Of a stretch of DNA of 64,000 bases, positions 60,803 to 61,338 are shown in pieces; within the stretch, counting starts at the first letter, position 1; every line of letters begins with the position of its first letter. The position numbers and the translations under genes are program-made. The notes beneath the pieces were generated by a model, which had not been told where the DNA came from, did no database searches, and saw only the letters and a list, made by a program, of their open reading frames with translations. This DNA is from Escherichia coli (GTDB lineage: Bacteria > Pseudomonadota > Gammaproteobacteria > Enterobacterales > Enterobacteriaceae): assembly GCF_030013595.1 (NCBI RefSeq), contig NZ_CP122768.1. One strand, given 5' to 3'.

Positions 60803-60820
60803 TGTACAATGAACTGTACA
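60803..60820 (+). promoter_or_regulatory. yefM-yoeB operator: paired TGTACA hexads overlapping the promoter
   Basis: tgtacaatgaactgtaca about 16 bp upstream of the yefM start codon, with RBS aggaga in between. Confidence 0.75.
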
Positions 60821-60835
60821 AAAGAGGAGATTGAC

Positions 60836-61087
60836 ATGCGTACAATTAGCTACAGCGAAGCGCGTCAGAATTTGTCGGCAACAATGATGAAAGCCGTTGA
60901 AGATCATGCCCCGATCCTTATTACTCGTCAGAATGGAGAGGCTTGTGTTCTGATGTCACTCGAAGAATACAACTCGCTGGAAGAGACGGCTTATCTACTG
61001 CGTTCCCCCGCTAACGCCCGGAGATTGATGGACTCAATCGATAGCCTGAAATCAGGCAAAGGAACAGAAAAGGACATTATTGAGTGA
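60836..61087 (+). CDS. yefM: Antitoxin YefM
   Basis: ORF-track ORF trimmed to [58 protein letters not shown] (83 aa) preceded by AGGAGA RBS. Confidence 0.93.
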
Positions 61088-61338
61088 AACTAATCTGGTC
61101 TGAGGAATCATGGGATGATTATCTGTACTGGCAGGAAACAGATAAGCGAATTGTTAAAAAGATCAATGAACTTATCAAAGATACCCGCAGAACGCCATTT
61201 GAAGGTAAGGGGAAGCCAGAACCCCTGAAACATAATTTGTCAGGTTTCTGGTCCCGACGCATTACAGAGGAGCACCGTCTGGTATACGCGGTTACCGACG
61301 ATTCACTGCTCATTGCAGCATGTCGTTATCATTATTGA
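61084..61338 (+). CDS. yoeB: mRNA interferase toxin YoeB
   Basis: 84 aa; [33 protein letters not shown]; start overlaps yefM stop. Confidence 0.93.

Follow-up and report, generated by a model that had tools for sequence, protein, structure and literature searches.

A chromosomal yefM-yoeB toxin-antitoxin operon and its autoregulatory operator beside the his leader of Escherichia coli

Two small genes with overlapping reading frames, preceded by a pair of TGTACA hexads, lie next to the his leader in a 64,000-nucleotide stretch of Escherichia coli DNA (hereafter 'the window'). A first-pass annotation, made from the letters alone, had named them as a toxin-antitoxin (TA) pair, and the question that the locus raises is whether they do indeed form such a module, and whether the hexads are the operator through which it would control its own expression. 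We put at about 98% the probability that the locus is the chromosomal type II TA operon yefM-yoeB of Escherichia coli, and we came across no evidence against this identification. Our own analysis covers sequence identity, protein families and gene layout, where the operator lies and how well it is conserved, and the genomes in which the operon occurs; DNA binding, repression, the transcription start site, the structure of the complex and catalysis are taken from the literature on identical sequences.

The first gene, yefM (60836-61087, + strand), encodes an antitoxin and autorepressor of 83 amino acids belonging to the Phd/YefM family, and the second, yoeB (61084-61338, + strand), starts at a GTG codon and encodes a ribosome-dependent mRNA endonuclease toxin of 84 amino acids. 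At the GTGA junction between them, the yoeB start codon (GTG, 61084-61086) shares bases with the yefM stop codon (TGA, 61085-61087), giving a 4-nt overlap; this is the layout of a type II TA operon, with two small genes on the same strand, the antitoxin first and the reading frames overlapping. The pair of 83 and 84 residues with overlapping stop and start had been described correctly beforehand, and its coordinates are those given to yefM and yoeB by RefSeq in a genome with 100% identity to the window across 60400-61500; RefSeq gives the gene order in matching genomes as hisL / yefM / yoeB / yeeZ. Two antisense ORFs, of 64 aa (61119-61313, - strand) and 40 aa (60785-60907, - strand), also appear in the ORF list; neither is annotated in RefSeq and both are of a size expected by chance.

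Comparison with characterised YefM and YoeB, as had been recommended, found both proteins to be 100% identical to chains in Protein Data Bank entry 2A6Q: all 83 residues of YefM correspond to residues 4-86 of chain A, and YoeB matches chain E over its full length, with the same YoeB sequence also contained in the ribosome complexes 4V8X, 6OTR, 6OXA and 6OXI. The first-pass annotation had staked its reading on alignment with the YefM/Phd and YoeB/RelE families, and the profile scores lie far over their cut-offs. YefM scores 96.8 bits against Pfam PF02604 (cut-off 29.8), 186.6 bits against the NCBIfam YefM equivalog NF008499 (cut-off 121) and 48.3 bits against TIGR01552 (cut-off 20.8), and YoeB scores 146.3 bits against Pfam PF06769 (cut-off 27) and 132.8 bits against the Txe/YoeB equivalog TIGR02116 (cut-off 51.8), the RelE, YafQ and ParE models giving weak secondary matches only.

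The translated yoeB ORF retains E46, R59, R65, H83 and Y84; in catalysis, Glu46 acts as the general base and His83 as the general acid, Arg65 and Tyr84 stabilise the transition state, and Arg59 is also counted among the catalytic residues (PMC3814384). Through its identity with the 2A6Q sequence, YefM should have a dimeric N-terminal DNA-binding fold and a C-terminal toxin-binding segment, and its binding and neutralisation of YoeB would be as seen in that solved complex. Ribosome-dependent cleavage of mRNA at the A-site and toxicity in vivo are established for an identical YoeB (4V8X, PMC3814384), and may be expected of this one. In all of this the module is one that is already known in full molecular detail, with nothing new in its composition.

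Turning to regulation, an operator string, TGTACAATGAACTGTACA (also written tgtacaatgaactgtaca), can be read directly at 60803-60820, with TGTACA cores at -33 and -21 from the yefM ATG and thus 12 bp apart, centre to centre. As our criterion for a yefM-yoeB-type operator we took that of Kedzierska et al. 2007 (PMC1802561), namely TGTACA cores 12 bp apart, centre to centre, and no more than 80 bp from the yefM ATG; the cores found here are paired in this way, and the 5' one is extended to a longer palindrome. When up to one mismatch was allowed, TGTACA-N6-TGTACA matched once in the 64 kb of the window, at 60803-60820, against an expectation from shuffled sequence of 0.11 and with at least one match in 10 of 100 shuffles. 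For an exact pair at this spacing, we infer from the densities of hexamers and pairs an expectation of about 0.002 per window. Single TGTACA hexamers are not enriched in the window (8 seen, 11.7 expected), and the signal therefore resides in their pairing and position.

The same authors established the L and S palindromes as the autoregulatory operator by DNase I footprinting, EMSA and lacZ fusions, the primary protected site being 5'-TCATTGTACAATGA-3' (L) and the second TGTACA core (S) lying 12 bp off, centre to centre (PMC1802561). In the window, L (long), the 14-bp primary YefM site that was footprinted in that work, occupies 60799-60812, and S (short), TGTACA, the secondary site for full repression by YefM-YoeB (PMC1802561, PMC7730913), occupies 60815-60820. 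YefM on its own takes a lacZ fusion from 4099 U to 739 U, and YefM-YoeB brings it down to background, at 126 U (PMC1802561). Mapping of the in vivo start site set the yefM ATG at +21 and an alternative ATG at -7, with the ribosome-binding site (RBS) set apart from the yefM ATG by 6 bp (PMC1802561). With that ATG at 60836, +1 therefore falls on the G at 60816 (+ strand), inside S, and the RBS, AGAGGAG, lies at 60823-60829 (+ strand), 6 nt 5' of the ATG. A 2020 paper (PMC7730913) gives the -10 box as 5'-TAcAAT-3', the -35 box as 5'-TaGttA-3', a 17-bp spacer and G at +1, with L spanning the whole of the -10 box and S surrounding the start site; the corresponding elements of the yefM-yoeB promoter (pyy) are TAGTTA at 60782-60787 and TACAAT at 60805-60810 (both + strand), the latter inside L. 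The published L, S, spacing, +1/+21/-7 geometry, -10 and -35 all map exactly onto the window, and, with binding taken from the literature, we would describe the element as an autoregulatory operator overlapping its promoter, in which L holds the -10 box and S holds +1.

The first-pass annotation had picked out the two TGTACA hexads just 5' of the yefM RBS as an operator, and both their position (60803-60820) and the published footprint (PMC1802561) agree with this. The hexads were placed correctly, with one small refinement: L begins at 60799, the promoter already at 60782, and the functional unit therefore opens about 20 bp before the start coordinate given. The EMSA of YefM-YoeB that it suggested had been published in 2007 (PMC1802561). 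Its factual statements were all borne out by the coordinates, ORFs, RefSeq annotation and profiles.

A consensus promoter scan of 60400-61500 reported nothing at the true yefM-yoeB promoter, because no more than 3 of the 6 bases of TAGTTA agree with the -35 consensus. The scan of this region did return one promoter-like and one terminator-like match, each on the - strand inside yoeB; we set both aside as chance matches, their counts being no higher than in shuffled sequence.

On its upstream side, the operon diverges from the hisL leader peptide gene (60503-60553, - strand, as mapped onto the window from RefSeq annotation), and the gap of 282 bp between hisL and the yefM ATG accords with the figure of about 280 bp given beforehand. 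The Rfam His_leader family matches 60404-60527 with 131.6 bits. A search of 59000-64000 at E <= 1 gave no Rfam match inside the cassette; weak matches to RcsR1, MIR8001, Thr_leader, NsiR1 and ctRNA sit on the His-leader terminator hairpin at less than their gathering scores, and were discarded. In O157:H7, codon 8 of hisL reads CAG (Gln) in place of CAC (His), through a single plus-strand G-to-C change at 60530, leaving a leader peptide with 6 consecutive His codons as against 7 and with a separate RefSeq protein accession. The hisG ORF, for its part, starts at a TTG at 60396 (312 aa; 59458-60396, - strand) as against the 299 aa from 60357 of RefSeq, and is therefore over-extended in the same manner as the 92-aa version of yefM considered below.

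Further afield, the enterobacterial sRNA STnc240 is matched at 63266-63340 (+ strand), just 3' of yeeY, with an Rfam score of 68.2 bits (gathering score 55), and the window also contains a pair of JUMPstart elements, an algC RNA motif and REP-derived naRNA4 matches in two arrays, of 2 and 4 copies; coordinates noted for context features are 13965-14003, 28448-28742, 33132-33491, 40062-40100 and 42000-48000. These features are typical of the colanic-acid / O-antigen / his region of E. coli, and a block of low GC content (0.29-0.40) fits with the presence of an O-antigen gene cluster.

The operon is not a constant feature of the species. Of 5426 complete E. coli genomes, a megablast search with 60400-61500 found 5423 to contain the region, many with 100% identity; the cassette itself is present in 4211 of the 5426 (78%), always on the chromosome and always at this site, and about 1214 (some 22%) match the flanks only. 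Alignment with the TA-less site of O157:H7 delimits the variable segment to about 60692-61343 (+ strand), which takes in the cassette plus 144 bp on its upstream side and reaches to 5 bp past the yoeB stop codon. In the genomes that lack the cassette (about 22%), O157:H7 among them, this segment is swapped, at the same junctions, for a 'filler' of about 208 bp with a pair of elements resembling REPs (repetitive extragenic palindromes). In O157:H7 one of these is TGCCGGATGCGGCGTGAATGCCTTATCTGGTCTACA, and the other is inverted relative to it and degenerate; homology ends after CTAAGAG (60691) and restarts at TTCATTCATAGAATGAA (61344/61345). Eight further copies of the REP core occur elsewhere in the window. 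In the divergent genome SY3626, just 178 bp separate hisL from the yeeZ homologue, and neither insert is found. The polymorphism as such is already published: Iguchi et al. 2011 (PMC3158064) reported that Sakai is without yoeB and yefM between yeeZ and hisL, with REP sequences filling that intergenic region, and the spacings of 282 bp and 82 bp on the two sides of the module have been tabulated (PMC5120126).

Past the downstream junction, a perfect palindrome, ATTCATTC-ATA-GAATGAAT, runs from 61343 to 61361, starting 5 bp past the yoeB stop codon and about 60 bp 5' of yeeZ. TA-less strains keep it (with 7-bp arms), and it therefore belongs to the yeeZ side of the junction. We considered, and rejected, the hairpin 3' of yoeB as a terminator for the operon: its z-score of -2.1 is modest, its stem is AT-rich, no U-run follows directly and it is kept where the TA genes are missing. 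It could be a binding site for a regulator, or a weak terminator.

Amongst strains that carry the cassette, the proteins of E. coli K-12 (b2017/b4539; PDB 2A6Q, 2A6R, 2A6S, 4V8X) are identical to those encoded here, as are the K-12 -35 and -10 boxes, L, S and RBS, and the hisL - yefM - yoeB - yeeZ site with its spacings of 282 bp and 82 bp is the same. A K-12-like O16:H48 genome and the window disagree at 8 positions over 60400-61500, all of them intergenic or synonymous, with none falling in a promoter or operator element. Across four lineages (the window, the K-12-like strain, CFT073 and MS14384), the -35 box, L, the -10 box, S and the RBS are invariant, and 17 substitutions have been accepted in the surrounding upstream DNA of the cassette, 60703-60833. 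YefM is likewise invariant in these four; YoeB carries T61I in MS14384 and L30I in CFT073, both conservative and neither at a catalytic residue. In strain HH97 (NZ_CP116409.1 2161606-2161829), an unannotated stretch shares 77% identity with the query's first 258 bp, corresponding to the promoter and the 5' part of yefM; it may be a second copy that has diverged or decayed.

Might the locus be read differently? The ORF list would make YefM a protein of 92 amino acids (60809-61087, + strand), beginning at an upstream ATG (60809-60811, + strand) that is in frame with no stop codon in between, and from which the ATG at 60836 lies 9 codons downstream. We give this next to no credence. Counted from the mapped start site, the upstream ATG spans -7 to -5, and the longer ORF is an artefact because its start codon, being upstream of the point at which transcription begins, is off the transcript. 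Even when yefM is overexpressed with this ATG included, the product still starts at +21 (PMC1802561); no Shine-Dalgarno sequence lies 5' of it, the first residue of the 83-aa form is where both the Pfam and the NCBIfam alignments begin, the Pfam match to the 92-aa form starting at its residue 10, and the RefSeq CDS has 83 aa. Start-site and N-terminal product data already in print are enough to reject the longer protein, and the first-pass annotation was right that the ORF was over-extended by 9 codons from an ATG without an RBS, although the stronger reason is that this ATG lies outside the transcript. Just as far-fetched, in our judgement, is the notion that in this strain the module has decayed and no longer functions. 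Such decay does befall chromosomal TA loci in some lineages, and yefM-yoeB is missing from 22% of E. coli genomes, but here neither ORF is broken, both encode proteins identical to the functional ones of K-12, and the catalytic residues, promoter, operator and RBS are all intact too. Because the yoeB allele is identical to that of K-12, we would expect it to be toxic.

The rival that deserves more attention accepts the same module and concerns what it is for. The role of chromosomal yefM-yoeB, be it in the stress response, in persistence or in selfish maintenance, is disputed in the literature (PMC5120126), and its real role here could be selfish, as a self-maintaining, horizontally acquired islet, or one of anti-addiction against the YoeB of IncF-type plasmids, rather than a host stress response; we hold this to be possible, if on the unlikely side. 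Presence or absence of the cassette at one fixed site, and segment boundaries that fit tightly round the module, speak for it, as does the description of type II TA cassettes as minimal horizontally transferred units (PMC5120126), and close relatives are found on large plasmids, beside traT or an IS110 transposase gene. On the other hand, we found no cross-neutralisation data, and within the complete-genome set no E. coli plasmid carries the cassette. Moreover, the proposal bears on function and not on identity or mechanism, and is compatible with the yefM-yoeB operon as the best explanation of the locus.

The plasmid-borne relatives are cassettes of 78-86% nucleotide identity on large plasmids, several with an IncF type, from Citrobacter, Salmonella, Escherichia marmotae and Enterobacter. 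In these relatives, examples being those of Citrobacter (NZ_CP053574.1), Salmonella (pIncFII.1, NZ_CP030176.1) and E. marmotae (pEM148), YefM is 93-95% and YoeB 88-95% identical to the proteins of the window. All five homologues examined keep the L core TTGTACAAT, usually as CATTGTACAATG, at -33/-34 from the ATG, with S at +12 bp bearing one mismatch (AGTACA or TGAACA), an operator layout in keeping with the criterion set out in PMC1802561, Figure 8; the same five also keep the GTG start and GTGA junction, and E46, R59, R65, H83 and Y84 of YoeB. Where they differ from the chromosomal locus is in their location on plasmids, next to transfer or IS genes (in some, traT or an IS110 transposase gene), and in their upstream DNA, which past about -60 is unrelated to that of the window. 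Cross-talk or anti-addiction between plasmid and chromosomal yefM-yoeB is a possibility. The best three 'plasmid' matches of all come from E. coli, in records of 0.39, 1.4 and 4.8 Mb, and are 98-100% identical to the window's cassette; judging by their size and identity, these records may be chromosomal DNA filed as plasmid.

More distant comparisons help to place the operator. In Axe-Txe, from plasmid pRUM of Enterococcus faecium, the antitoxin and toxin families are homologous to YefM and YoeB, and axe-txe likewise has an L and an S repeat whose TGTACA cores are spaced by 12 bp, together with a -10 box of TACAAT (PMC7730913). There, however, L sits in the promoter spacer and S overlaps the -10 box in part, whereas in yefM-yoeB L lies over the -10 box and S over +1, so that RNA polymerase would be fully excluded by steric means; axe-txe also has a much stronger promoter (-35 TTGCTT), incomplete repression and extra promoters. 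Phd-Doc of bacteriophage P1, whose antitoxin is of the same Phd/YefM fold family, shares the logic of an antitoxin that represses, a toxin that serves as corepressor and two adjacent palindromes bound in sequence (PMC1802561). The palindromes of its operator, each of 8 bp, are spaced 13 bp apart, and its toxin is unrelated to YoeB. Doc is a Fic-family kinase and not an RNase.

Bringing these strands together, we propose the following model for the yefM-yoeB operon of this strain. A weak sigma-70 promoter (-35 TAGTTA, -10 TACAAT, start G at 60816) would drive a bicistronic mRNA, on which yefM and yoeB would be translationally coupled via the 4-nt GTGA overlap. YefM dimers would bind L, over the -10 box, and then S, over the start site; with YoeB as corepressor, the YefM2-YoeB complex would fill both sites and sterically exclude RNA polymerase, and within this complex the C-terminus of YefM would cover the active site, or catalytic face, of YoeB. 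On depletion of YefM, which is sensitive to Lon protease, free YoeB would enter the ribosomal A site and cut mRNA after the second codon position, with Glu46 as base and His83 as acid, bringing translation to a halt. Lon overproduction is known to switch on YoeB-dependent cleavage (PMC1802561).

We also speculate, with more doubt than attaches to the selfish or anti-addiction role in general, on two consequences of carrying the cassette. Because chromosomal YefM is 93-95% identical to that of IncF-type plasmids, and the L operator is shared, the chromosomal copy could be an anti-addiction module, such that 78% of E. coli could lose these plasmids unpoisoned. Similarly, since the 82 bp before yeeZ hold no canonical terminator, autorepression by YefM-YoeB could reach yeeZ, and so could set its expression in carriers but not in strains with the REP filler; co-transcription of yeeZ with yefM-yoeB has already been suggested as likely (PMC5120126).

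Finally, the discovery value of the locus is small, given that the module, its structure, operator, promoter and presence/absence polymorphism have all been published. Its worth is as a calibration point: a reading of the letters alone correctly named the TA pair, the operator and the over-extended ORF, and the locus also demonstrates that a consensus scan can overlook a real, experimentally mapped promoter when the -35 box is weak.
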